A stretch of DNA of 64,000 nt from Candidatus Dojkabacteria bacterium (GTDB lineage Bacteria; Patescibacteriota; Dojkabacteria; J137). This document shows, piece after piece, positions 13,812 through 31,247 of the stretch. Below the pieces are notes generated by a model, which was given only the letters and a program-made list of their open reading frames with translations, was not told the origin of the DNA and ran no database searches. How positions within the stretch are numbered: the first letter of the stretch is position 1; each line of letters starts with the position of its first letter. The DNA lies in contig JAUZRK010000003.1 of the NCBI GenBank assembly GCA_030950485.1, forward strand, positions 20,228 through 84,227, in the 5' to 3' direction. The position numbers were made by a program, and so were the translations under genes.

Positions 13812-14666
13812 TCAAGAATTAACATATTCTCCCTTCACATAGCTGCCTAATATTTTTAGCTTCTCGACATAACTAGACAACTCTTTTAATGCATTATTAA
13901 GTGCTTCATCAGCCATACCTGCTGCAACATCCACATAAAACCTATACTCCCAGTCTGTTCCTATAACAGGCCTACTTTCTATTTTAGTTAGAGATAAATC
14001 TCTATCAGCAAAAGCTCTAAGAGTCTTATATAATGAACCCGCTTCTGACCCTAGAGTAAATTGAAAAGTAGTCTTGTAACCATTATCTTCATTATTGACT
14101 ATTCTTTTTATTTCTCCTTCATCTTCTGGTCTACTAATCACATAAAATCGAGTATAATTTTTTGGGTTCTCATGAATGTTGTCTTCAAGTATCTCAAGAT
14201 TGTAAACTTTTGCCGCCATCTTACTAGCGCAGCCTGCTGATGTAATCATATTATTTTCAGCTACCATCTTTACTGAGCCTGCAGTATCTTCATGCTCATG
14301 AAATTTGATTTCTGGATGAGCCAGTTCAAATGGTTTTATTTGACCTCTTGCTACAGGGTGTACATAAATATCAGTTATGTCTTTAAGAAGTTTCCCTTTA
14401 TGGCCAATCAAATGAAAGTTAACTTTAACGTAAACTTCTCCAACCAATGAAACTGAGTAATTAGTAATATTGTCATAATTTTGATAAATAGATCCATATG
14501 TTGAGTTTTCAATTGGCACAACAGTAACGTCAGCAAGCCCTGATTTCAAATCTTCAAATACCTCTCTAAACGAACCTCGTTGAAGAAGATCAATTTCAGA
14601 TCCAAAGACTTGATCCGCAGCAATGTGCGAATAAGATGCTAAATTCCCTTGTATAGATACTTTCAT
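13812..14666 (-). CDS. pheA: Prephenate dehydratase (PDT + ACT), copy 1
   Basis: QG..ASYS, VPIENS..G, HPVA..Q, NYTRF, LTKIESRP..WEY.FY.D. Confidence 0.92.
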   Translation of the reverse strand: MKVSIQGNLASYSHIAADQVFGSEIDLLQRGSFREVFEDLKSGLADVTVVPIENSTYGSIYQNYDNITNYSVSLVGEVYVKVNFHLIGHKGKLLKDITDIYVHPVARGQIKPFELAHPEIKFHEHEDTAGSVKMVAENNMITSAGCASKMAAKVYNLEILEDNIHENPKNYTRFYVISRPEDEGEIKRIVNNEDNGYKTTFQFTLGSEAGSLYKTLRAFADRDLSLTKIESRPVIGTDWEYRFYVDVAAGMADEALNNALKELSSYVEKLKILGSYVKGEYVNS

Positions 14667-15838
14667 AATATTTCTGATAATTTTTTAATACCTTCATCTA
14701 TGCTCTTTAAATCAGGACTAGAAAAATTTAGTCTTAATTTATTCTTCCCATCTAATTTATTGGGAGTAAATAAAGTTCCTGGCACAAATGATACACCATT
14801 ATTAATTGCTTTTTTATAAATTAGATCAGAATCTATATCGTTCTCTCCTTGTAACCAAATAAACATACCCCCTTCAGGTTCTGCGTAACTATAACTCTCA
14901 GGTAAGTATTTATTCAAAGCTTCGACCATTATATCCTTTCTCACTTTATATATTGAGCTCATCTTTTTAACATTAGTATAGAATCTTTCATTGTCTAATA
15001 TTTCTACAACCACATTTTGAGCTAATACATTTGCATGAACATCAACTGAAAATCTCATTGCGTTTATTTGATCTATCAATTCAAACGGACCTGTATAAAA
15101 CCCTACCCTTAGTCCTGGCCCTATAGATTTAGAAAATGTTCCTAAATAAATTACGTTCTCAGCAGCTAAAGAGTATATGCTATTTATCTGCTTATCATTA
15201 AAGTTAATGTGTCCATACGGATCATCTTCAAGTACAATTAAATCATTGTATTTAATGATCTTTGCTAAAGCAGTCCTTCTTTGCTCAGACAAGGTATAAC
15301 CAGATGGATTTTGAAAAGTAGGAATCAAGTAAGTTAACTTAACATCATACTTCTCTATAAGTCTCTCATACTCACTAATTATTATCCCTTCAGAGTCCAT
15401 AGGTATAGGTACTATCTGTGCTTTACAACTTTGCATTGACTGTAAGGCTGCAAGAAAAGTACACTCTTCTACAAGCACAACATCCCCTTCATCTAAAAAA
15501 GCTTTACAAACTGTATCGATAGTTACTTGACTACCTGAAGAAATGCCTACACTTCTAGAATCAATCTCCAAATTTTGTGTTCTCTTTAAAAACCTTGCAA
15601 CGGCTTCTCTAAGTTGTGGAATCCCATTACTAAAACTATAGTTCATTAGTGATAAATCATTTTTTCCTAGAACCTTATCTACTGACTCTTTAAATAGTTC
15701 ATAATCAAGAGACTCTGCCGCTGGATGACCAGCTGCTAGTGAAATAAGATTGTCTACACCAAAGGTGCTTAAGCTATCACGAACAATCTTAGAGTCCATC
15801 AACCTATTTCTTTCTGATAACTTTTTAATATAATTCAT
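14663..15838 (-). CDS. PLP-dependent class I aminotransferase (LysN/ARO8-like), probable aromatic aminotransferase
   Basis: ISLAAGHP, IPTFQNPSG, EDDPY, GTFSKSIGPGLRVG, PEGGMFIW, LRLNFS. Confidence 0.9.
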   Translation of the reverse strand: MNYIKKLSERNRLMDSKIVRDSLSTFGVDNLISLAAGHPAAESLDYELFKESVDKVLGKNDLSLMNYSFSNGIPQLREAVARFLKRTQNLEIDSRSVGISSGSQVTIDTVCKAFLDEGDVVLVEECTFLAALQSMQSCKAQIVPIPMDSEGIIISEYERLIEKYDVKLTYLIPTFQNPSGYTLSEQRRTALAKIIKYNDLIVLEDDPYGHINFNDKQINSIYSLAAENVIYLGTFSKSIGPGLRVGFYTGPFELIDQINAMRFSVDVHANVLAQNVVVEILDNERFYTNVKKMSSIYKVRKDIMVEALNKYLPESYSYAEPEGGMFIWLQGENDIDSDLIYKKAINNGVSFVPGTLFTPNKLDGKNKLRLNFSSPDLKSIDEGIKKLSEIL

Positions 15839-15847
15839 ATGTATTTT

Positions 15848-16678
15848 CTACTTATTTAATTTATTTCTATATCTTCCTATAATTGAATATTCTATTGTAC
15901 ATTTATCTAATATTGTTTTCAAACCTATCTCAGTTGATGAATCTACAAGCATGTCTATCCAAAAAGCATATTCCCAATTTGTATCTGGGATTGGCCTTGA
16001 TTCAATCTTTGTTAGCGATATGCCTATACCTCCGATACTAGTCAAAAGATTCGCTAGTGATCCAGCAGAGTGCGATACTCTATATATAACGGATATTTTC
16101 TTATAGTCTTTAGCTGACTCCTCAACTTCAAATACATTATTACTAACAAATATAAATCTTGTAACATTATTAGAGTAGTTGCCTATATTTTCTATAAGAA
16201 TTTTTAAGCCTTTTTTCTTTGCAAGCTCAGCTGAACCAATACAAGCTTTAGTCTTATCTTTTAACTTCAGAATATCCTCAGCACCCGCAGCAGTACTTTT
16301 AGATTCGTTAACTCCATACCCTCTTTCATTAATCATTTCAGAACACTGAGCTATAGCTTTGGGATGAGAATATACTTCTTTAATATCTTTGATCTCGGCG
16401 CCTTCTAAAACTATGAGATTTAAAACTATATCCATATTTGCTTCGCCTACTATCCTAAGCTCTTTCTTGAACATAAAATCTATATTTACATGTACTGTAG
16501 AAGTAATTGAATTCTCGATCGGTAAAACTCCAATGGTATTAGAATTAGTTATACACCTCTTTACAATTTCGTTAAAATTGTCTGATGGTTCTAAATTATA
16601 ATCGTTAGAATCAAAACATTTAGAAGAAATAATTCCAGAATAACTTTGTTTTGGTCCTAAATAATATACTGTTTTCAT
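15848..16678 (-). CDS. pheA: Prephenate dehydratase (PDT + ACT), copy 2
   Basis: YLGPKQSYS, LPIENS, SHPKAIAQC, NVTRF, LTKIESRP..WEYAFWID. Confidence 0.9.
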   Translation of the reverse strand: MKTVYYLGPKQSYSGIISSKCFDSNDYNLEPSDNFNEIVKRCITNSNTIGVLPIENSITSTVHVNIDFMFKKELRIVGEANMDIVLNLIVLEGAEIKDIKEVYSHPKAIAQCSEMINERGYGVNESKSTAAGAEDILKLKDKTKACIGSAELAKKKGLKILIENIGNYSNNVTRFIFVSNNVFEVEESAKDYKKISVIYRVSHSAGSLANLLTSIGGIGISLTKIESRPIPDTNWEYAFWIDMLVDSSTEIGLKTILDKCTIEYSIIGRYRNKLNK

Positions 16679-17439
16679 TCTTCTTTAAGTCTTAATTGTT
16701 TGTTAGATATTTGAGACATAGTCTCTTCTATTGACATCTTTATTTTGTCAAACTGTTTACTACAGAATGGATTAAAGTTATACATATCCTCAGTAATCTC
16801 CATATCAGCACCGATCCTTTCTACAAAATCGTGCATTCTTGATGCTGATACTGTGTCAATTTCAGTCCTCTTCATACTCAATGTTTTAAGCACATGAGAA
16901 ATAGTTAGAGTAGTAAAGTGAAATTCTGAGGCTAGTTCATCATGTCTTTCTGCTGAGATTTCTACAATTTTGTTTTTTAGCTTAATAAATATATCCTTTA
17001 CTATATTGTAAATCTCCTCACTTGCGTTAATATTTTCAATCACAATATTAAAACCCTCTACAGAATTATTATTATGTTTATAAGACTCTGGCCCATACAT
17101 TGGATGGGTACAAATTTTCATTACTTCTACCGGAAGCTCTTTAATCATAATTTTTTTGGGATAAGATTTAATAGAACAAACATCTATAAATATTGAATCA
17201 TTATCTATATACTTTGCTACTTCCCTAGTAACTTTTTCAAATGCTTTTATTGGCACTGATGGAATGACAATGTCGCATTTACAAGCATCTTCAAAATCAA
17301 AAAAGTCTTTGTTATCAATTTTCTTTGACCTTGAAGAAAATTTAATTTGGACATCTACAATTACATCTTCAAACATTGTTTTTAATAGTTTCGAAAACTT
17401 TCCATATCCTATTATCCCTATTGTTTTAATTTCCTTCAT
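16675..17439 (-). CDS. tyrA: Prephenate/arogenate dehydrogenase (TyrA family)
   Basis: IGIIGYGKF Rossmann motif, DVCSIK, THPMYGP, HD. Confidence 0.88.
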   Translation of the reverse strand: MKEIKTIGIIGYGKFSKLLKTMFEDVIVDVQIKFSSRSKKIDNKDFFDFEDACKCDIVIPSVPIKAFEKVTREVAKYIDNDSIFIDVCSIKSYPKKIMIKELPVEVMKICTHPMYGPESYKHNNNSVEGFNIVIENINASEEIYNIVKDIFIKLKNKIVEISAERHDELASEFHFTTLTISHVLKTLSMKRTEIDTVSASRMHDFVERIGADMEITEDMYNFNPFCSKQFDKIKMSIEETMSQISNKQLRLKEE

Positions 17440-17707
17440 CTTCTCTAGTTTTTAAAATAAAGTCATGAATTGTGTTCATTAAATCTGAGATTAACTCTTT
17501 GTCAACTCCAACTTTTGCAGCTAGATCTTTTTTCGACTTCAAAACCTCTTCCCATCTTCCTGGAGCATGAGATGGCATACCAGCATCCTGCTTTGTATCC
17601 CAAGCTCTAGAAGCCGCATTTAATCTTTCTGCAACCCAACAAACGGACATATTATCTAATAGATCTATTGAGTCTCTTAATTGTTTTAGTTTTTCTTCTT
17701 GTGTCAT
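17426..17707 (-). CDS. Chorismate mutase, AroQ type
   Basis: LKQLRDSIDLLD...AERL...K...RWEEVL; 93 aa; operon context. Confidence 0.82.
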   Translation of the reverse strand: MTQEEKLKQLRDSIDLLDNMSVCWVAERLNAASRAWDTKQDAGMPSHAPGRWEEVLKSKKDLAAKVGVDKELISDLMNTIHDFILKTREDEGN

Positions 17708-17735
17708 ATTATTTAATAATTAATAAGTTATATAA

Positions 17736-19603
17736 TTAAAATTCTATTCCCCCTTTTATATTCTCAGTGTTATTTCTTATTAGGAAGAGTCTCTTTAAAA
17801 ACTCAACTATCCCTAAATCTTCATTACTCCAATAATAAATCATTGCCCACAGATTGCCCTTATTTGCTGCTATTTCTGCTGAATCCCACTCTCGACCTTT
17901 TGTATCCATATTAAATTTTGCTTTCAGACTTCCAACTATCCTATTCAACATACCTCTCAAACCTTCTACAGCTGGTCTCTCAGAGGAAGCAATAGCATAT
18001 GTTGCCATATTAGCGTTTGGTATATCAGTTCTTGATTCCTCTAAGTCTGTCAAAGGATCTTTACCCGTATATCTTATATTTGGGTCATTCATAATTACTC
18101 TTCTCTCCCATACGTCTTTTCTGCTAAATAAGTAGCTCCATCTTCACCTTGCTTAAGCCTTCTACCTGTACCCATTATTAGGTCAACTCCACCCCTACAA
18201 ATATCGGGGAGTGATGATAGTGATGTCATATTTTTTATTATTGAGTCATATTAATTAACAAGCATTTGGATCAATTCATTGTCTTTATCTAAATCTAGAT
18301 TATGAGCCATTGTAGCCAGTTCCAAAAGTTGATCTGCAGTTAATCTTAAATTTCCTACCCATGCTCTGCCATTTACAAACTGAGTCGAAACAGTTCTAAT
18401 AACTCCCCCCATTCTAATATGAGCTGATAGAAGACCGTATCTGAGCTTTTCAATTTCGCCATTATCCATTTTTATATATATTTCATCTGGTATTACAGCT
18501 TCTTCAATTACGAATCCTCTAAAGTCGGGGTTTTTACTATATTCATCTATAATCAGTTTACTAATTGCTTCAACCTTAGAATTAATATCACCGAACTCCC
18601 ACATAAAAACCTCTACACCATCTCCGTCTGTCCCAAGCCTTCTTTTTAAAACTACATCTGCAACATTATGCTTTTTATGCATTATTCTCAATGTTCCTCT
18701 AATATATAGATTTAATTCCTCAATAGTCATATCACTATCTAGTTCAAGGCAAAACCCTAAACCAAGAGCAAGATCTTCAGGGTTACCACCTGCCGCAGAA
18801 ACTCTTTGATATATTTCGGACTTAGTTTTATCTGGCAGGTTATTTGAATACATTATTTCTTCAGCAGTTTTACTAGATATATCATTTATCTCTTCCCTGA
18901 GGAGTTTAGGATATAAATTTCCCTTATCTATTAATTTAGCCGACTCTGGACCATTAGCCATTACAAACAGTGGAACTCCAACTTCTTGACTTAAGTAAGA
19001 TATAATTATTTTCATTTCAAGATCAAGGTGATACAGATCAATAGCAATATTTTCCTTTCCAAGCTCTTCTATTAAAGTGGCTATCACTTGAGAACCTTGA
19101 GTTTTTAAATTATCTTTATGATCTCTCATAGCCAGTAAAATACTGTGAGAAGTGTAATACATTTCTTCATTACCTATTTTTAATTGTATTCCCTTGTATT
19201 GATCTCCATCTGCTCTAGGGTACCCTTCTCTCCCAGAAAGAACGGTAATGTCACCCTCAGCCTTAGACATGTAGGTTCTCTGAGTACAGACTGAATTAAT
19301 ATCTATTCCCATTTTAGTTGCAACATCGATTTCATGATGATTCATGTCCCTTGTCCCTGAGGCTATAGATAAAGTCCTCCTAGGTGAAATACCAGCTAAA
19401 TGACTATCTATATTTCTTCTACTTAAAGGTATCATTGCTTGCTGACTTAAATGTATATCTAAACTATTCATTAATTCTTCTCCAAGTAATTCCTCACCTA
19501 TTGCCTCTACTCCGCTGTTTGTCAAAACTATTAAGCTACCTCCTTCTTCGCCAAAGGAGAGTCTATCGTATTCTTCTCCAATTTGTAAATTTTCTATAGC
19601 CAT
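17736..19603 (-). pseudogene. ATP-grasp ligase-like protein of about 620 aa, interrupted (in-frame TAA at 18251-18253 and frameshift near 18120)
   Basis: VVLKRRLGTDGDGV and FVIEEAV in ORF 18251-19603; reading through TAA gives RGGVDLIM; adding one A in a poly-A run joins VIMNDPNIRYTG of ORF 17736-18092. Confidence 0.6.
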
Positions 19604-19624
19604 AAAAATATATATTATAAAGAT

Positions 19625-19649
19625 AAAAAAAATCCCCTTTCGGGGATTT
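19625..19649 (-). terminator. Attenuator terminator hairpin
   Basis: Minus strand AAATCCCC-GAAA-GGGGATTTTTTTT, about 20 nt upstream of the ATP-grasp start. Confidence 0.92.
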
Positions 19650-19683
19650 ATATGTTTTTCTACTAGATATGCAAAAACAACCC

Positions 19684-19749
19684 CTAATTAGGATTTCCAA
19701 AAAAGTAAAAGAAAAAATAGTTTTGGTTTGTTTTTGTTTTATTATTCAC
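19684..19749 (-). CDS. Phe/Tyr-rich attenuation leader peptide MNNKTKTNQNYFFFYFFGNPN (pheL-like; not in ORF track)
   Basis: GTG start, seven consecutive Phe/Tyr codons, TAG stop; followed by alternative hairpins and terminator; upstream of Phe/Tyr genes. Confidence 0.88.
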   Translation of the reverse strand: MNNKTKTNQNYFFFYFFGNPN

Positions 19750-19755
19750 GAACTG

Positions 19756-19764
19756 ATGATAACA
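19756..19764 (-). promoter_or_regulatory. Extended -10 promoter giving a leaderless leader-peptide transcript
   Basis: Minus strand TGtTATCAT ends 6 nt before the GTG. Confidence 0.55.
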
Positions 19765-19837
19765 GAAAGTTTAAATATTTAAAATATTTTTCACTAATAT
19801 TTACAGATAGTCTTATGTACTGCCTTATAGATATAGC

Positions 19838-20742
19838 TTATAAGTCTCTATTCTTCGATATATCAACGACTAGTTTTTTAAGCTCACTGATAGAAATATG
19901 CTGCCCAGTATCTGTTTTAGATGTACCAACTTCTATTAAAATCCCATCATATAAAAATCCGCTTTCATTCAACTTCATATTAGCTGCATCAATCGTAGCA
20001 TCTAAAATACTGTCTCTCATTCTTGGACCATAGGCATGGCTTGGGTCAAAGTACAACTTACAACCGGTTCTCTTTTTTACTCTAGCTGCATGATTATGCA
20101 TAGGATAATTTCTATAGTCAGCTTTTTCTGGAATATCAAATCCTCTATGAATCAATACCGTGTGATTCTTATTATCAGAGTAACTAAGCCTTCCCAAGCA
20201 CTCTCAATAGGAGTTTTTAACTCAGAATTTTTATAATTATCTGCAACTTCAATATGTTCACCAACCCATTTCCCATTTTTTAATCCAACTACCCATTCAT
20301 TTTCTTTTGCAACAGCACTCATTTGCATTACTTGCCAGCCTAGTTGATTTACAGAAGGGTTCCAAATCATAACTTTTTGCTTTGGTAATTCTCTTGAGAG
20401 AACAGGTAACTGTACTATTGGCATCATTATTTCTGTAGCAATATTCAAACCTGTCTTTTTAATTATTTCTTTTGCAATTTCTATACTTGGTGGAATTTGA
20501 AAATCTTTAATATTCCCTCCCTTTGGTAGAAGTTGGAAATTGTACATTAAAGTTTCGTAATCCATTCCCATTCCCTCTCCTGACTTATCTAAAACTGTTC
20601 TAGATTTAAGACCTACAATTCTTGTTCCTGTAATTGCCATTTTGCCATTAATCTCTATCTTTGCAATTTCTAAAATCTCCTTTTTATTATTATCTATAGA
20701 ACATGGTCCCGCATAAATTGAGAACTTTTTATTTTTAATCAT
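19838..20742 (-). pseudogene. DAHP synthase I-beta-like, split by frameshift near 20180
   Basis: AGPCSI, KSRT, ATEIM, LKNG in ORF 20152-20742; LIHRGF, YRNYP, FDPSH, DGILIEV in overlapping ORF 19838-20197. Confidence 0.78.
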
Positions 20743-20931
20743 AAATACTATTTAAAAACTATAATTGATTATTCAACCTTTTTTAATGACTAAATCTTCA
20801 TAGTAACATTCTATTAGAAATGTTAAACGATAGAAAGGTACATTTAGAATGTCTTTGAAATGTGACAGAAAAAATATTAATCTATATTTGGAAAAAAACC
20901 CACTCTATACTTTATATATTAATTTTCAAAT

Positions 20932-21171
20932 ATGGATCATTCAGTAATAAAAGATCTCCTTTGGAGAGCTCTAACAGATACATCTTTTAGAGAAATTTTA
21001 GTTAGTGATTTTGAATCAGCAGTTAAGGATCATGAGTTATCTGATGAGGATAAAGCTTTACTAAAAAAAGTAGTTAACGATAAACCAGGTCAAATCGACG
21101 ATCTTGGAAGTTATCTTTCTCAAGTTCTAAGCGAAAGAGATAACAAAGGGTTCATTATGGCTGGTGGGTGA
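20932..21171 (+). CDS. NHLP-clan (Os1348/Franean1_4349-like) RiPP precursor-type small protein
   Basis: LLWRALTDTSFREILVSD...HELSDEDKALL leader pattern (RAxxDxxFR..L..D....LS.ED), LSERDNK then short tail GFIMAGG. Confidence 0.68.
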   Translation: MDHSVIKDLLWRALTDTSFREILVSDFESAVKDHELSDEDKALLKKVVNDKPGQIDDLGSYLSQVLSERDNKGFIMAGG

Positions 21172-21179
21172 TTAATCTA

Positions 21180-24100
21180 CTATAATTCCAAGAAATCCTC
21201 AGTTTTTGGTCGTATTAATTTATTAAATACAATCTTAAAAAGCTGAGGATTTTCTATCTTTATTCCGTCTATATCTTTTATAGAATCTATAAATTCATCG
21301 TATGATGATATATTAGCTTTAATTTTTATCTTTTCTTCCCCCATATTTATTTCGAATACAGCAAATGTTTTGTCACCTTCATTTATATCTACTATTCCAT
21401 TATTTATATCTATAAACTCACCCAAGATAAATCTTACTTTTGACATGTCATACCTATGAAACGCCGAAGTAACAGCGAGCTGTGGAGAAAGCGCAAATAC
21501 TCTATCAAGCTGATCTAATAGCCTGTCGATATCTCCAGGAACCATTTCTAATGGTAAAGACTTTATTAAATTCATATATAAATTAGCTTTGGTCTCCTTA
21601 TTTCCTGGAATTCTATGAATAAATTCAGGGTAAAGAAAAAGCATACTTGCTAAGTTTGATGAAACATTAGCAACTCTCTGTCTCATAGATTCATCTTCTG
21701 ATTGACCTAGCATTGATAAGACTTGTAATAAGTTAGTAAGGGCATTTAACCTTACTTTAGAAAATTCCATGACGATAACTTCAGGCAAAAGTCTAATCAT
21801 GTCAGAATAGATATCCGAGATTTCAACTCCCGCATAAAATGCTACTACTGGTTGATTAGTAATCAGTTGAGCTTTAGATCTTGCTGGTATCAAAGTACTC
21901 TTAATCAATATATCTAATTTCTCAGGTGCTGTTTTAGCTTCTACCAGTTGTTGTAAAAGATCAACATTCTTAGGCCTTTTAAACATAGGTTCGTATTTTT
22001 GTTTAATTAAATCTATAACCCTACCTTCTTGTTCAACATCTCCATACATAGTGTAAAGAGAAGCTAATGTAATGCCAAAAGCTCTTAGGTCCTTAGCGTT
22101 AATTATTTCGTCTACAGATTGCTCTAAAAACTGAAGCGCTGTTGCATCTTTTTCTCCCTCTTCTTTTAATGCTTTATATGAATCATATAATAATATAGCC
22201 TTAATCCTTGGATTAGTTTTGCATAACTCATAAAACTTTTCTTCAGACTCACTCATTGATTGCTTAAGTCTCAAAGGCATTAGCTTATATTGGTAGCTTA
22301 CTGCTAATCGACCTATAACTTCAGCAGAATTCTCGTCAATTTCACCAGCATAATTGGCAATAGTATTAATTAATTTAATTAGCCTTTGACTATTAGAGAC
22401 TTCAATCCAAGATCCATCAACAGTTTCATTTAATTCTTTCCATTCAGTGTACAAACTAGCCTTAAATACCAAATCTGGGTTATCCAAAGCATTTAAATCA
22501 ACTCTATCTATAAAATTGAATGTAGATTCACCATTTACAAATGCCTTTTCTGCAAGATCTAAAAAAATCATTGAACTTTCAGCTTTTAGGTTAATATATT
22601 CTTCATTCGCCTCTAGGCGTCTAAACTGATCAGCCGTATTATCTAGAAATTGTGCATACACTAAATTATCACCATTAAAAAGAGAAACGTCATTTTCTTT
22701 TACATCTATTGGTGAAACTTCTAGTGTCCCTTGATAAAATTCGTTAGGAAGAATTCTTATACTCCCATCTGCTTCTTCAAATCTTCTAATCGCCTCGATA
22801 CTTTCCAAATAATCTAATTGAGCTCCTAATGTTTCATTTGAATCTACTTCTAAAATCCTACTAAGTGTGTTTAACTTTATACCTAATTGAAAACCTCCGT
22901 AAGCAGCTTCTAGTACTTTTACTCTTATTTCATCCTGTTTCGTAAATTGTTTGTCTCTAAGTTGATTATAAAGAATCTGAATATAGGTAGAATTGCCATC
23001 TCTAATAGAAGCATTATTATATCCGTATTCCTGTCTTCCATGCATTGCTTCTAATTTTGCGAGATATATACTAGCCTCCGACCATCTTTCATTTTCAATA
23101 AAAAGCGTAAGAGTTCTATCAAAATACATTCTAGGTAAGTGATGTATGTGTGATTCAAGAAACTCTTGTGCATTTATAAATTCTCGTTTAGCTTCAAAAT
23201 CAACATCAACTAAGAAAATGTGATAATTTCCTTCTGTTCTGAAGTGAGACACATCACCATCAATTCCTAAATTGTCATTAATGCTACAAGCTATTCTAAT
23301 TCCTGGTTCTCCTCCAGCCTTGATCATATGTCCTGCGGCTCCCCCTAAAGCATTTACATGAATATTAAATTGTGGCGAATTATAGAATCGAAAAGGTATA
23401 GCATTATCAACTGCTGCGGTTATTCTATAGTTTTCATCTAGACGATTATCATGGAGAACCCTAAGTACTTTAGAGATCTCTGCAGTTTGAGCCTCCAGAA
23501 TAATAAAACCATCTGCTCTAACTTTAACATCGTAGCCTAGTAATCTTGCTTTAGACACAGCCTCTAAAATACTCTGCCTGAATTCTTCATCATAATCATC
23601 TCCATTAACATTTCCAATAAAAATAATACTCTGTCCCGCATCTACCTTATCAGCTATTACAATTTCCTGAGTAGCAGTTTTTATATTTTGAACTATCGTA
23701 GTTTTCCAGCTATCTTCAATACTACCTGCTCGAACTTTTAATTCCTGCTTATTTTGCCATATGGATTTAGCACCTACTTTTAAGTGCACATGTGTATCAT
23801 TATGTGCTTTTAATGATTTCAAATTCTTATCTACTTCTTTACTTCTAGTTTCACAGATAATCCCTACTTTATCAGGAGTATTTACATTTCCTATAGCATT
23901 AAAAGTTGTAGTTAATGAATCGCCCTCGGTTGTCCATCTTAGGTCATCTAATATACCAGGATTTAAAGCTATAAGAATGTCATCTAGATGTTCTACGTAG
24001 CCTAAAATCTCTTCCTCACTTCCATAGAAATGAATCCAAGGACTATCTCCCATTACGTCTACTATTACTGCTTTAGCAGCGCATACTTGCCCAGATCTAT

Positions 24101-24527
24101 TTAATTTATCTATAACCATTCCCAAATTACCAAAAGAGCTTCGATATAAGTTTATACCTCTCTCTACTTGTTTCTTACTAAAACCAACTCCATCAATTTC
24201 CCTCATAGCTTGAGGTCTAACATTTTCAGCTAGACTTCTCGCAGCATGTAGATCCCCATCGCTTTGATAATATACGAGAGTTAAATATATTCTTTCTGGA
24301 GAATAACCGTTGCTAGAACAAAAAGCTAATAAGTTATCAATGTCTAGTATAGCCACTTCAGAACCTTCACCAAATGCTCTAGAAAACAAATCAGGATTTT
24401 GCTCATGTATTTCATTAATTGCAGCTAGTGGATCTAACCTAAAATTGTCTAATACCTCTGTCTCAAACTTCCCATTTTCAGACGTTTCACTATAAAGCAG
24501 ATCTTCAGCATCTCTTTTATCTGACAT
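21180..24527 (-). CDS. 1115-aa protein: degenerate tandem class III nucleotidyl cyclase-like domains, winged-helix-like segment, helical/TPR-like C terminus
   Basis: VIVDVMGDS, TEGDSLTTTF, HLKVG, RADGFIIL, AAGHMIKAGGEPGIRI; helical C-terminal half; no P-loop seen. Confidence 0.5.
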   Translation of the reverse strand: MSDKRDAEDLLYSETSENGKFETEVLDNFRLDPLAAINEIHEQNPDLFSRAFGEGSEVAILDIDNLLAFCSSNGYSPERIYLTLVYYQSDGDLHAARSLAENVRPQAMREIDGVGFSKKQVERGINLYRSSFGNLGMVIDKLNRSGQVCAAKAVIVDVMGDSPWIHFYGSEEEILGYVEHLDDILIALNPGILDDLRWTTEGDSLTTTFNAIGNVNTPDKVGIICETRSKEVDKNLKSLKAHNDTHVHLKVGAKSIWQNKQELKVRAGSIEDSWKTTIVQNIKTATQEIVIADKVDAGQSIIFIGNVNGDDYDEEFRQSILEAVSKARLLGYDVKVRADGFIILEAQTAEISKVLRVLHDNRLDENYRITAAVDNAIPFRFYNSPQFNIHVNALGGAAGHMIKAGGEPGIRIACSINDNLGIDGDVSHFRTEGNYHIFLVDVDFEAKREFINAQEFLESHIHHLPRMYFDRTLTLFIENERWSEASIYLAKLEAMHGRQEYGYNNASIRDGNSTYIQILYNQLRDKQFTKQDEIRVKVLEAAYGGFQLGIKLNTLSRILEVDSNETLGAQLDYLESIEAIRRFEEADGSIRILPNEFYQGTLEVSPIDVKENDVSLFNGDNLVYAQFLDNTADQFRRLEANEEYINLKAESSMIFLDLAEKAFVNGESTFNFIDRVDLNALDNPDLVFKASLYTEWKELNETVDGSWIEVSNSQRLIKLINTIANYAGEIDENSAEVIGRLAVSYQYKLMPLRLKQSMSESEEKFYELCKTNPRIKAILLYDSYKALKEEGEKDATALQFLEQSVDEIINAKDLRAFGITLASLYTMYGDVEQEGRVIDLIKQKYEPMFKRPKNVDLLQQLVEAKTAPEKLDILIKSTLIPARSKAQLITNQPVVAFYAGVEISDIYSDMIRLLPEVIVMEFSKVRLNALTNLLQVLSMLGQSEDESMRQRVANVSSNLASMLFLYPEFIHRIPGNKETKANLYMNLIKSLPLEMVPGDIDRLLDQLDRVFALSPQLAVTSAFHRYDMSKVRFILGEFIDINNGIVDINEGDKTFAVFEINMGEEKIKIKANISSYDEFIDSIKDIDGIKIENPQLFKIVFNKLIRPKTEDFLEL

Positions 24528-24599
24528 ATAGTTGAAAGATTCAATAAATAGTATATTATATGGCTAGGATAAGTCCCAAACTCAACGAATTATAGCAAG

Positions 24600-25739
24600 A
24601 TGTTCCGTCATCTCCAAATAACAATGACAAAGAGAAATTACAACTGGCAGAGCAATATAACAATAAACGAAAATTTTTATCTAGACAGGGGTGACAGACT
24701 TGGAAAAGATAAAAACTCGTCACATTATTTCCTTATAGATTCTAATAGCTCTAAAAGAGTTTTGATTTCACCTAACGAAGCTTTTATATGGTTAGAGTTA
24801 AAGGAGAACGGTGATGTGAAAGAGGTTCTATTAAACTATCTTAAAACATTTAATAAGATTGATTATGAACTCTTTGAGAATATTTTAGATAAATGGGCAG
24901 ACGAGGGTATTATCTCAGGAAAAAGCTTAAATATTCATGTTAAGGAAAAAAAGATTGTAGCTAAAAATTTTATACACTATATCTATCTGGTATCAAACTT
25001 AAGTATAAATATAAGCCTATTATCAAAGTTAATAAATAATACATATAAACTCATACCAAAGTTTATGTTTTCCAAATTCGTATCTTTGGGCAGTATTCTT
25101 ATAGCTACAATAATAAACTTTTTCTATCTATCAACATTTATAATACAAGGAGAAGACACTTTCAAATCAGATAACGTTGCATCTTCGTCTTCGCTATTAA
25201 GTCTTCTACTCATTCCTATGATAACAATCATAGTGCATGAACTTGGACATGGGCTTGCTCTTAGCCATATTGGGCTTAAAGTTAAACGAAGCGGATTTAG
25301 GCTTGTTTTCGGTATTCCAGTATTCTTTGTCGATACGTCTGATTCTTGGATGAAGAAGGCATATAAAAGAATATTTGTAACTGCTGCGGGGCTTATAGTT
25401 AATTATTTATTAGCTGCAATTAGTTTATTCATTGTAATTTTAAATACTAATTCCTCTATAGATTTATTTTTCATGGCGTTAGCTATTACGAATCTTCTAA
25501 CATTAGCCATCAACCTGATTCCTTTCCTTGATTTTGATGGATACTACCTTTTAATAGACTCTTTTAATTTACCAAATCTAAAAAATGAATCATTTAGAAT
25601 TCTTCTAAGATTTATAGGGGATCATAAAATATCTAGGAATGAAATTCTGTTTTTATTTTTCAGCTTATTTTGGACAATCTTTCTTGCGGCGTTCATTACC
25701 TTTATGTTCTTACAAATATCAGGCCTAATTTTAAATTAA
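24600..25739 (+). CDS. M50 (site-2) intramembrane metalloprotease with N-terminal RRE/PqqD-like domain
   Basis: HELGH, FFVDTSDSW, AAG, NLIPFLDFDGYY; N-terminal strand-strand-helix3 pattern (YFLID...ISPNEAFIWLELK...ILDKWADEGII). Confidence 0.82.
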   Translation: MFRHLQITMTKRNYNWQSNITINENFYLDRGDRLGKDKNSSHYFLIDSNSSKRVLISPNEAFIWLELKENGDVKEVLLNYLKTFNKIDYELFENILDKWADEGIISGKSLNIHVKEKKIVAKNFIHYIYLVSNLSINISLLSKLINNTYKLIPKFMFSKFVSLGSILIATIINFFYLSTFIIQGEDTFKSDNVASSSSLLSLLLIPMITIIVHELGHGLALSHIGLKVKRSGFRLVFGIPVFFVDTSDSWMKKAYKRIFVTAAGLIVNYLLAAISLFIVILNTNSSIDLFFMALAITNLLTLAINLIPFLDFDGYYLLIDSFNLPNLKNESFRILLRFIGDHKISRNEILFLFFSLFWTIFLAAFITFMFLQISGLILN

Positions 25740-28012: not shown

Positions 28013-29499
28013 TTAGACTTCGACTAATTCACCTTCTTCTAGTGTTACCACTCTGTCCGGTCCTATATTCTCAGAAAAATATCTATCGTGTGAAATTAAA
28101 ATCATAGCGCCTTTAAATTCTCTAAGTGCTTCTTCAATTACCTCTTTTGTTTTAATATCTAAATGATTAGTTGGCTCATCAAGAATTAAACAATCGTACT
28201 CATGGTAAGTAAAGATTGCGAATGAAAGCCTTGCTCTCTGTCCAGGACTTAATTTACCAATTTTTTGAGACCTTAAATCTTTATCAAAAAGAAATTTTTC
28301 TAATTGTCCGAAAGAACTACTGAAAGAAACATTAGCTTCTCTCATAAAATACTCATCAACTCTCATTTCCATCGGAAGATGTTCTTGATTTTGAGAAAAG
28401 TATTTCCATTTAAGGTTTTCTCCCCATTTTATAGCTCCCTCTACTGGCTTTAGTTCATTAACTAAAAGCTTTATAAAAGTAGATTTACCAGTACCATTAG
28501 GTCCGACTAACCAAATTTTCTCATTTCCATAAATCTCTAGATCTACACCATTAATCAATGGTGTCTTCTCCTCCCCTTGAGGGAAGGCTGGGAGGGGTGA
28601 TGCTCCCCAATCAAAGACTAAGTCATTAACTTCTAAAACTCTCTTAGTTCTACGAACTTCACCTTCAACAGAAATACTTCCTATAAGCTCTTCTTTATAT
28701 GTGCCAATTTCATTTCTACTTACTTCTCTTTTCATTCTTGTTTTGCAGCTCTTACAGCCTTACCTCTTTGCTTAGCATCTTTAAGTTTTCTACTATTTTC
28801 TAAAAGTTTTTCTAACTGCTCTCTCTTTTTTTCTTGAGCTTTAAATAATCTTGCTCTCTCTTCAATATAATAATCTTTCGCTTCAAGAAACTTATCATAG
28901 TTTCCATCCCAGATTCTTAATGTCTGCTCGTCAATTTCAAAAATTTTATTTGTAAGTGAATTTAAAAACATCCTATCGTGTGAGATCATAATAATGATTC
29001 CATCGAAGTCCTTTAGAAAGCCTTCAAGCCAAATGATTCCATTAATATCTAAGTGATTAGTTGGTTCATCAATTAGTAAAACTGTCGGTTCTTTTATTAA
29101 AACTTTTGCAAGATATAATTTCATTTTCTGCCCCGGACTAAGTGTTTTTACTTCATCAAACTCATCCACATCAAGTTCAAGTTTTGCCAATAATCGATCG
29201 ACTTTCCACATATCGGTATAGTGATTCGCTACTAGTGATTCTAAAAACTCTCCTACAAATGTAAGCTTCTCAAAACTTAGGTCTAACTCTTGAGGTAAAT
29301 ATCCAATTTTCTCTTCTTTAGTCAGGCTTACATGCCCTTTATCTGGATCTTCTAACCCTGCTAAAATTTTCATCAAGCTAGTTTTACCGCATCCATTCAG
29401 ACCAACAAGACCTACTCTTTCTTTATTTCCAAGTATGAAATTAACGCCAGTAAAAAGTAGTTTTTTATATTCAATTTGTAAATTCTCAGCTTTTATCAT
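28013..29499 (-). pseudogene. ABC-F family ATPase, split by one-base frameshift near 28740
   Basis: Two NBDs (GLNGCGKTS/LSPGQ/DEPTNHLD/SHDR and GPNGTGKST/LSPGQ/DEPTNHLD/SHDR); adding one A to GCAAAACAAG restores AAKTRMKRE. Confidence 0.85.
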
Positions 29500-29777: not shown

Positions 29778-30618
29778 ATGAAATATAAAATTACTGCTTT
29801 AGCTGAAAATACAACTTTTAGACATAATGCTCTAGCTCAGCATGGTCAATCTATATTAATTGAAGCTGGAGATGAATATAAAATGCTATTTGATGTCGGA
29901 GAGATTCCGGGTGCTATTGAACATAATATGAAACAATTAAAAGTAGAATTAAATGATATTAATGACGTAGTAATTTCTCATAGACATATTGGTGCACTTA
30001 CAAACATGGTAAGTAATTTAAATGATCAGAGAGTATATTTACCGACGCAGCTTGGTGAAGAAGATATTAGAAATCATCCTGAAAAATATAATTTCCTACC
30101 TAAGAATCCAGACGGAGGATATGACTTAGCAAATATCTAAGGAGGATGCTTTACTTTTAAATGAGAAGCTTAATACTGTAGCTGTAGATAAAGAAGGTTT
30201 TGAAATTTCTCATAATATATATACTTCTGAAATTGCAGGTGATTGGATGGAAGAGCAAGCTATTGTTATCGATCAAAAAGAATTAGGAATAATTGTCATA
30301 GTAGGTTGCTCACATCCAACCTTAGAAGTTATGGTTGAAAAAGCAAAGATTACTACTGGAAATAATAAGGTAAGAGGAATAATAGGAGGTTTTCATCTTG
30401 CAGATAAAACAGAAGACGAGATCATTGAGTCTGCTAATAAATTCAAATCCTTTGGAATTGAGTTTATGGCTCCAGGTCACTGTACAACAGTTGGAGGATG
30501 TCAGATTTTAGAGAAAACCCTAGGAAGTGAAATCGTAAGATTATCTAAAACTGGAACATTTGCTACTGGTAATAATATAGAAATTAATGGCAGTGAGATT
30601 TTATTTAATTTTGTTTAA
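29778..30618 (+). pseudogene. MBL-fold metallo-hydrolase, frameshifted near 30133
   Basis: QHGQSILIE, LFDVG, VISHRH; downstream frame EEQA, GCSHP, GGFHL, PGHCT. Confidence 0.8.
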
Positions 30619-30629
30619 ACAGTAATTTT

Positions 30630-31247
30630 ATGAGAGATGATATCAAATTAGTATCTTTTGATATGTCAGGTACATTAGTTCTCGGATCAGGTTCAAACTC
30701 TGGAGCTAAATTAGTAGGCAGAGGAGATTTCTATGATAAAAATAAAAGTCTATACCAAGATGGAAGTATAACTATGCAAGAATTTCTTACAGGAACATTT
30801 GCTGAATGGGAAGGTTTAAGTATCTCTAAGTTGCCTGAAATAATTGAATCATTTACTTTTAGAGAGAATGCAGAAGAAACTGTTAAAGCTGTTAAAAAGA
30901 AAGGCTATAAAACAGCATTCTTAACAAACGTACCTATTCAATTAAGTATGCTGCTGAAAGAAATGTTTGAGTTTGATTTTGTAGCTGGTACTAATTTAGA
31001 AGTGATAGATAATAAATTTACAGGAAAAATTTTAGAGTATGCAGGTGATAAAGTTGCTTCTTTAGGTAAGATATTAAATACTGCTGGATTAGATTATAAA
31101 GATGTTGTTCATATCGGTGACAGAAGAGATGATGCAGAGGTATTTGAAAAAGTGTCTTTCGGAATTGCAATTAGTGATGATGATTATGTTAATTCTGTAG
31201 CTGATTACCAAATAGAGAAAATAGAAGAGGTTCTAGAAATTCTTTAG
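30630..31247 (+). CDS. HAD-superfamily phosphatase (SerB-like, IB)
   Basis: FDMSGTL motif I, K motif III, IGDRRDD motif IV. Confidence 0.82.
   Translation: MRDDIKLVSFDMSGTLVLGSGSNSGAKLVGRGDFYDKNKSLYQDGSITMQEFLTGTFAEWEGLSISKLPEIIESFTFRENAEETVKAVKKKGYKTAFLTNVPIQLSMLLKEMFEFDFVAGTNLEVIDNKFTGKILEYAGDKVASLGKILNTAGLDYKDVVHIGDRRDDAEVFEKVSFGIAISDDDYVNSVADYQIEKIEEVLEIL

Follow-up and report, generated by a model that had tools for sequence, protein, structure and literature searches.

The region considered here spans positions 13812-25739 of a 64,000-nucleotide stretch (the window) of a Candidatus Dojkabacteria genome (GCA_030950485.1, contig JAUZRK010000003.1), which belongs to the candidate phyla radiation (CPR). 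The genome, labelled G000, comprises 1.41 Mb and is 92% complete, and the region lies on its contig C23. It contains genes for the Phe/Tyr branch of aromatic amino acid biosynthesis, the gene for an ATP-grasp ligase behind a predicted attenuator, and a cassette encoding a short precursor-like peptide, a large protein, and an M50 protease. The features are listed below (aa, amino acids; nt, nucleotides; ORF, open reading frame; PDT, prephenate dehydratase; CM, chorismate mutase; DAHP, 3-deoxy-D-arabino-heptulosonate 7-phosphate).

13812..14666, minus strand: PDT1, bearing an ACT domain and orthologous to the stand-alone PDT that is widespread in the family
14663..15838, minus strand: class I/II aminotransferase (PF00155, E 1.7e-37)
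15848..16678, minus strand: PDT2 (PF00800, E 2.5e-47; PIENS, TRF, and ESRP motifs)
16675..17439, minus strand: prephenate dehydrogenase TyrA (PF02153, E 7.7e-14)
17426..17707, minus strand: CM type II (PF01817, E 2.4e-11)
17736..18092, minus strand: C-terminal piece of the ligase in a different frame (matches profile positions 454-545, with E 6.6e-5 for a single comparison)
18095..18250, minus strand: ligase frame continued past the stop, 51 codons with a GG-D-G motif (profile positions 351-443 align across the stop, E 2.8e-24)
18251..19603, minus strand: ATP-grasp ligase, N-terminal 450 aa (PreATP-grasp/LdmS/PGM1-like group), closed by an in-frame TAA at 18251-18253
19630..19649, minus strand: intrinsic terminator (3:4 hairpin, G+C, plus U-run), 26 nt upstream of the ligase start
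19684..19749, minus strand: leader ORF of the putative Phe/Tyr attenuator, 21 codons, GTG start
19838..20742, minus strand: DAHP-synthase-like gene in two pieces (20152-20742 and 19838-20197), frameshift near 20180
20932..21171, plus strand: 79-aa precursor-like peptide of the Os1348/Frankia_peptide type (NHLP clan), with a short tail behind an ER.(T/N)K/P-G motif
21180..24527, minus strand: 1115-aa protein without detectable relatives, standing where the compared locus L109 has a cyclase-AAA-TPR protein
24600..25739, plus strand: M50 intramembrane protease with putative RRE (HExxH at 213-217; N298-P308-D313 motif)

An earlier note, made from the sequence alone, had proposed that the ligase and the aromatic genes act on the NHLP-like peptide, with unrelated neighbouring modules as its alternative. 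The PDTs, the aminotransferase, TyrA, the CM, the DAHP-synthase-like gene, the 79-aa peptide, and the M50 protease that it had named all stand where it had placed them. The aromatic block, the ligase, and the 1115-aa gene lie on the minus strand, and the peptide and M50 genes, which flank the 1115-aa gene, on the plus strand; with genes on both strands, the whole block is not one transcription unit. GC content is even over the whole region (31-33%), so composition does not point to one island acquired recently.

The note had overlooked a predicted Phe/Tyr attenuator at 19630-19749, in the spacer that separates the ligase from the DAHP-like gene. Its leader contains seven consecutive Tyr/Phe codons (TAT TTT TTC TTT TAC TTT TTT), and all non-T bases of this run are placed as a Phe or Tyr codon demands. 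When the 234-nt spacer was shuffled 5000 times with its dinucleotides preserved, no shuffle matched the seven-codon run, and a genome-wide scan revealed no other F/Y leader at the 92 terminators of G000. The 5' arm of the terminator can pair alternatively with a GGGG behind the leader stop, forming a 2:3 antiterminator. Constrained folds predict this antiterminator (−8.8 kcal/mol) for a ribosome on the last Phe codon, and the terminator alone (−11.9) for a ribosome at the leader stop. Alternative folds were also computed for two other ligase loci, L028 and L034, and are predicted to be mutually exclusive in both. The best Rfam match, below threshold, is RF01859 Phe_leader (19623-19733, E 0.0012, 34.8 bits). 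Behind the attenuator, the operon runs ligase-CM-TyrA-PDT-aminotransferase-PDT on the same strand, with gaps of 28, −14, −4, 9, and −4 nt, and the genes downstream of the ligase serve the very amino acids that are sensed. We therefore predict a pheL-like attenuator that opens the operon on Phe/Tyr shortage; the DAHP-like gene, lying upstream, is outside its control. A promoter scan gave chance level (59 against 64). Elsewhere in G000, two adjacent short ORFs rich in Ile/Val/Thr stand ahead of terminators (C7:12997 and C7:14034) and may represent further attenuators.

To compare gene neighbourhoods, we used 221 genomes of the class, 400 genomes of the phylum, and the best 80 of 247 metagenomic M50 protease loci, 26 of which bear a precursor. 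The protease was found in five others of the 221 class genomes, with one further weak match containing stops. Precursor, large ORF, and protease recur in the orientation of the window in all four protease loci with enough flank (L010, L011, L012, and L014; L013 and L015 reach contig ends). None of the six loci L010-L015 contained a ligase or aromatic gene match, and the ligase family was absent from all five other protease-bearing class genomes. Likewise, the ligase neighbourhoods in the six other ligase-bearing genomes held neither precursor nor protease, and the 80 metagenomic loci yielded neither this ligase family nor homologues of the aromatic genes, apart from one generic aminotransferase in L093. 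The M50 partners at those loci comprise cyclic nucleotide monophosphate (cNMP)-binding fusions, cyclases, extracytoplasmic function sigma/anti-sigma factors, an M16 peptidase, radical SAM and YcaO proteins, and a 70-aa Cys/His protein. A check for ATP-grasp proteins near precursors covered 41 ORFs and 32 proteins. They came from a pool of 189 ORFs, each 270-720 aa long, at 22 of the 26 loci; 89 of the pool passed a composition filter.

The co-occurrence that the earlier note had asked about was thus seen in no other protease genome (0/5), ligase genome (0/6), or metagenomic locus (0/80), and the separate distributions favour its alternative. With a probability of roughly 0.8, we read the region as two unrelated modules: an operon of ligase and aromatic genes responding to Phe/Tyr starvation, and a separate three-gene peptide cassette. 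The two are best read as neighbours by chance. Of the original proposal, the tie between ligase and aromatic genes stands, by operon and attenuator, whereas their joint action on the peptide is not supported.

The ligase gave no Pfam or NCBIfam match and no PDB sequence match. Its ESM Atlas features reach 0.91 to PreATP-grasp/IQCH clusters, with template modelling scores of 0.49-0.61 to ATP-grasp models, and LdmS_N clusters appear among the matches at 0.88-0.89 (leads only). A search of 1.84 billion representatives returned 11 weak relatives besides the ligase itself, mostly of 546-618 aa; intact relatives, such as L028:6672-8513 and L027:9099-10829, measure 546-697 aa. As a lone query the ligase recovered 0 of 60 relatives and none in the genome contig collection, and family members in class genomes emerged only with a profile. 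Nine aligned relatives conserve K320, DG326-327, and E367 and, over the part that is broken off in the window, the G-D and D-N-G motifs. Atlas features and conserved motifs lend some support to the cryptic ATP-grasp gene of the earlier note; our own single-sequence AlphaFold model was unusable (predicted local distance difference test, pLDDT, 34).

The ligase profile detected eight genes in five other class genomes, and two pieces in one of the 400 phylum genomes. Upstream DNA was readable for nine of 11 ligase genes, and five of the nine carry a Phe-type sensor (four leaders and one T-box). Besides the window, this applies to L028 (genome G081) and L034 (G078), each with five Phe codons and the same hairpin geometry, to L168 (G334) with the leader FFWFSF, and to L027 (G075), where a T-box scores 89.3 bits against a gathering threshold of 93 and shows UUC at the specifier position in an alignment read by eye. 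A Met-type paralogue in G081 (L029:18582 onward/L030) has two tandem Met-rich leaders and a gene resembling methionyl-tRNA synthetase downstream; this genome holds four ligase paralogues with different sensors. Since four members other than that of the window are Phe-sensed without aromatic operons and by two mechanisms, leader and T-box, the Phe link is a trait of the family. Attenuator and Phe-type sensors together lead us to predict that the ligase is tied to Phe/Tyr starvation, as LdmS of Staphylococcus is to Met, and not to the precursor. By analogy with LdmS, the family may comprise L-amino-acid ligases whose dipeptide product contains the sensed amino acid, a proposal to which we give an even chance. 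Other ligase-like genes also stand behind leaders followed by terminators: tandem Tyr leaders at L028:3625-5154 (GCS2-like), Tyr/Trp at L027:7058-8428 (unassigned), and Leu-rich at L027:13627-15114 (PreATP-grasp). At L170:8179-10842 (G334), two ligase units are fused in tandem (at least 887 aa) and followed by a glutamine amidotransferase.

In the window, the ligase gene is broken by the in-frame TAA and by a frameshift near 18095, as aligned with a profile of nine representative relatives plus the window piece. The pieces of the DAHP-like gene are 50-59% identical to intact relatives of 297-325 aa. A second assembly yields the same 450-aa (ligase) and 196-aa products, and the in-frame TAA is present in both. 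Among 64 G000 genes comparable with relatives (69 kb), only two others, of 63, contain a stop; the ligase and the DAHP-like gene have three breaks in about 2.8 kb, against approximately 0.08 expected (rough hand estimate). Both genes are probably decaying in this genome. A recoded stop was rejected, because the two further in-frame stops agree neither in codon (a TAA and a TAG) nor in the residue that they replace. In-frame stops were noted in an exonuclease-like gene (G000 C18:9679-10101) and a nucleotidyltransferase-like gene (C1:120118-121191). Within the window, an ABC-F-like ATPase gene (28013-29499, minus strand) and a metallo-hydrolase-like gene (29778-31247, plus strand), both named by eye, are each in pieces, further signs of decay or assembly error nearby.

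The aromatic genes form the end of a pathway. AroB, AroC, and AroE were searched for and not found in G000, so chorismate would have to come from outside; two matches are placed no more finely than the EPSP family. AroB and AroC are also missing in four of five relatives, 89-94% complete, that have the DAHP-like gene. Neither PDT is truncated (276-284 aa), and both carry the PIENS, TRF, and ESRP motifs. PDT1 matches the stand-alone copies at E 1e-87 to 1e-105, and a PDT is present in 47 of the 221 class genomes and 15 of the 26 of the family. The aminotransferase is likely the aromatic transaminase of the operon, its substrate being deduced from gene position. F/Y leaders head PfkB-(aldolase)-DAHP-like operons in five of six relatives, the run in G220 being very similar; these operons contain no ligase, and none of seven stand-alone PDT loci has such a leader. 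The Phe/Tyr-attenuated operons of PfkB kinase, aldolase, and DAHP-like gene, mostly in genomes without AroB/AroC, are found at L067 (G061; 12066-9269), L068, L069, L071, and L072, and their kinase and aldolase could supply erythrose 4-phosphate. Several Dojkabacteria families also have short PDT-family genes (about 200 aa, with no room for an ACT domain), e.g., G061:C9:413138.

Several points weigh against the reading as a starvation-controlled ligase operon beside an independent cassette. The window leader does not reach the RF01859 gathering threshold of 55, and its GTG-started ORF lacks an evident Shine-Dalgarno sequence. Of the nine readable ligase genes, the other four have one tandem Met-rich leader, one degenerate T-box, and two unclear sensors. 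In a quick tree, the window ligase sits on a long branch (2.61) apart from the Phe-sensed members; it is left unplaced, and its own specificity thus rests on its own leader. The second assembly shares two truncations, yet has three truncations/indels of its own and may rest on the same reads, so that sequencing error may explain the breaks. Completeness of the compared genomes ranges from 80 to 96%, and many loci cover little sequence. Furthermore, at L109 a PreATP-grasp gene and an AstE-type deacylase lie approximately 2 kb from the same trio as in the window, behind an opposite-strand gene. That ATP-grasp protein belongs to a different family than the window ligase (hhalign 2.4%), and a search without positive control did not find its type in five cassette-bearing genomes. 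The L109 gene (356-2803) encodes a PreATP-grasp ligase with weak BesA similarity, and the nearby cassette has two M50 proteases.

Finally, the aromatic genes may be the original owners of the attenuator, and the ligase a later insertion between the two. Taken further, the ligase would be a chance insertion that decays without any role there. The ligase-free aromatic operons headed by F/Y leaders in five of six relatives (with the very similar run of G220) fit this explanation, as does the broken state of the ligase. No other genome combines the ligase with TyrA or PDT, the nearest case being a chorismate mutase 4 kb away in L028. A chance insertion would, however, leave the four other Phe-sensed members without aromatic operons, with their two mechanisms, unaccounted for, and we consider it very unlikely.

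A bacilysin-like route is less likely still. Here, the ligase would be intact in life, the breaks being sequencing errors, and would make a bacilysin-like or aromatic dipeptide independently of the precursor, with PDT2 as a BacA-like decarboxylase. Two PDTs in one operon, the position of both frameshifts in short A/T runs, and the indel-prone sister assembly are consistent with this. The TAA, however, is of substitution type and present in both assemblies, both PDTs have the length and motifs given above, TyrA and CM round out an ordinary Phe/Tyr branch, and the operon is under starvation control.

Turning to the second module, the window precursor scores 30.8 bits with NF038399 (Os1348), below the cut-off of 40, and matches PF14407 at E 5e-4. 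On these scores the 79-aa peptide is a candidate member of the NHLP/Os1348 group. Syntenic orthologues in L010 and L011 pass NF038399 (61.8 and 85.9 bits); two others gave no match. Common to the precursors are the leader and an R...G motif, behind which the tail varies; it has 5-10 residues and ends in G, G, S, M, and A. Used as query, the window precursor found no other protein among four candidates, and the L011 precursor found only itself in the genome contig collection. A PF14407 scan over 401 phylum genomes returned one weak match and missed the peptide of G000 itself, and is thus too insensitive to count. The product of L091:186-1232 may be a multi-core precursor, its Frankia_peptide leader preceding some 280 residues of short repeats.

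In the protease, H213, E214, and H217 of the HExxH motif as well as N298, P308, and D313 of the NxxPxxxxDG motif are invariant in six of six sequences, and NF041824 gives 110.8 bits against a cut-off of 300. The M50 protease of the earlier note is confirmed, and its RRE-like domain is supported only indirectly: the N-terminus aligns by hhalign (92.5%) to a PqqD-positive stretch of L128, and direct Pfam and PDB searches of the region were blank. Plasmid searches returned generic M50 proteins only. The RRE-M50 protease is accompanied by a conserved Cys/His protein of 70 aa that belongs to no Pfam family (40-54% identity; L010:10676-10888, L011:10640-10849, and about 25 metagenomic loci) and is absent from G000.

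For the 1115-aa protein, the only relative found was the copy in the sister assembly, and both a PDB sequence search and BLAST to the L109 protein were blank. The large proteins of five Dojkabacteria loci range from 343 to 1237 aa and are barely alike (17-20% for three of them). They matched cyclase, AAA, and winged-helix profiles no better than shuffles did; for these profiles, 61 of the 120 relatives that the L109 protein has were used. The Atlas score was 0.81, and a single-sequence AlphaFold model was unusable (pLDDT 35.5). Foldseek gave no hit at E 0.001, and the best VIA match reached Z 6.9, with no cyclase listed; a ferredoxin-like patch at residues 284-376 (Z under 7) comes from a low-confidence model. 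The cyclase-like/TPR call of the earlier note thus found no confirmation in any sequence or fold test. Tentatively, and at somewhat less than even odds, the protein may be an eroded cyclase-AAA-TPR partner, judging from its gene position in L109 and two Asp motifs seen by eye. Pfam reportedly ties the Frankia_peptide family to cyclases in Chloroflexi.

Least likely of all is a pheganomycin-like route, in which an aryl acid from the aromatic genes would be attached by the ligase to the M50-released peptide at its N-terminus: the modules are adjacent within 12 kb, the ligase falls in the Atlas PreATP-grasp/PGM1 neighbourhood, the released tail would begin with Gly or Lys, and L109 has an ATP-grasp gene near its cassette, but the modules co-occur in none of the 221 class genomes or 80 metagenomic loci, starvation control suits supply rather than antibiotic synthesis, the aromatic genes look like those of primary metabolism, their PDT motifs being intact and one of them being the common orthologue of the family, non-ribosomal peptide synthetase (NRPS), radical SAM, and methyltransferase genes are absent among the 14 ORFs of the region, and the ligase is broken while the cassette is intact.

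Under the two-module reading, scarcity of charged tRNA-Phe/Tyr would stall the ribosome on the run, let the antiterminator form, and have the operon read. CM, TyrA, PDT, and aminotransferase would then turn outside-derived chorismate into Phe and Tyr, and the ligase family would build the sensed amino acid into a dipeptide. In the cassette, the protease, guided by the leader, would cut the short tail off the NHLP-clan peptide. Since the cassette shows no evident modifying enzyme, it most likely yields a short peptide without modification; whether an unmodified peptide of 6-12 residues is freed as a signal or host-contact factor is, in our estimate, a toss-up. With this cassette, Dojkabacteria retain a minimal NHLP/RRE-M50 system.

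Starvation control of pathway ends without the middle suggests that host and symbiont pass metabolites to each other. Since most amino-acid synthesis is missing from CPR symbionts, the loci bear on how these bacteria come by their amino acids. One speculative and unlikely answer is an undescribed mode of scavenging, in which paralogous ATP-grasp ligases, each induced by starvation for a single amino acid, trap that amino acid as dipeptide, while orphan pathway ends (DAHP synthase with the kinase and aldolase supplying erythrose 4-phosphate, and the chorismate-to-Phe/Tyr enzymes, without shikimate core) use intermediates of the host or operate within it. If so, trapping would lift feedback inhibition in the host, and peptidases of the symbiont would later release what was trapped. 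From its sensor, a substrate can be predicted for an orphan ligase (Phe in five cases and Met in one), which makes this unannotated family directly assayable. Placing a ligase on one transcript with the Phe/Tyr branch, the window provides the family's most direct pathway link among the 11 genes examined.

Several described systems invite comparison. The pheL/pheA attenuator (RF01859) likewise has a short leader ORF, a Phe-codon run, 1:2/2:3/3:4 hairpins, a U-run, and Phe biosynthesis genes behind it. The window differs by its mixed Phe/Tyr run, its CPR host, its sub-threshold score, an operon that opens with a ligase, and a pathway without shikimate core. In the openly readable literature, without supplements, we found no account, for CPR, of ligases under attenuator control or of such a cassette, and the LdmS paper (PMC9486568) was the sole match there for a T-box or riboswitch with an ATP-grasp gene. 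According to that paper, LdmS is an ATP-grasp L-Asp-L-Met ligase of Staphylococcaceae, encoded beside the M20 peptidase HmrA and controlled by CodY/CymR or an S-box, a regulation that its authors call a paradox. The window ligase would share the control of an ATP-grasp enzyme by amino-acid limitation and bears on this paradox, i.e., a ligase consuming the amino acid whose shortage induces it. M20-like genes (named by eye) lie beside family members in L027 and L032, whereas the window operon has no M20 peptidase gene. Further differences are the lack of a sequence match to LdmS in PDB or Pfam, the sensing of Phe/Tyr, a dipeptide activity that is predicted by analogy, and paralogues with differing sensors, such as the tandem Met leader in G081.

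To PGM1 (as described in PMC8939145), the likeness lies in the PreATP-grasp group, as indicated by model features and predicted fold. However, the window ligase matches neither PF18604 nor PF18105, although its Atlas neighbours carry both families. According to the same text, pheganomycin synthesis uses NRPS, radical SAM, and C-methyltransferase for its non-proteinogenic acid; the window has none of these, and its ligase is not conserved with precursor and protease. The cassette can be set beside systems of Frankia_peptide/Os1348 precursor, cyclase, and cNMP-binding M50 protease, with the same leader family and the same protease subfamily, and L109, whose cyclase-AAA-TPR protein has its best relatives mostly in Chloroflexota where named, shows a gene order identical to that of the window. 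In contrast, the Dojkabacteria version lacks cNMP-binding domains, G000 lacks the 70-aa Cys/His partner, and the large protein has diverged beyond recognition. In PMC8939145 and PMC12353581, Frankia_peptide is a precursor family of RiPPs (peptides made by the ribosome and modified afterwards) that goes back to an ATP-grasp survey of 2009. In daptide synthesis, the RRE-fused site-2 protease MpaP removes leaders (PMC10036551). The window has an NHLP-clan precursor without the invariant C-terminal Thr and no MpaBCDM or other modifying enzymes; with MpaP, its protease would share the N-terminal RRE, the M50 HExxH protease domain, and a short precursor encoded nearby.

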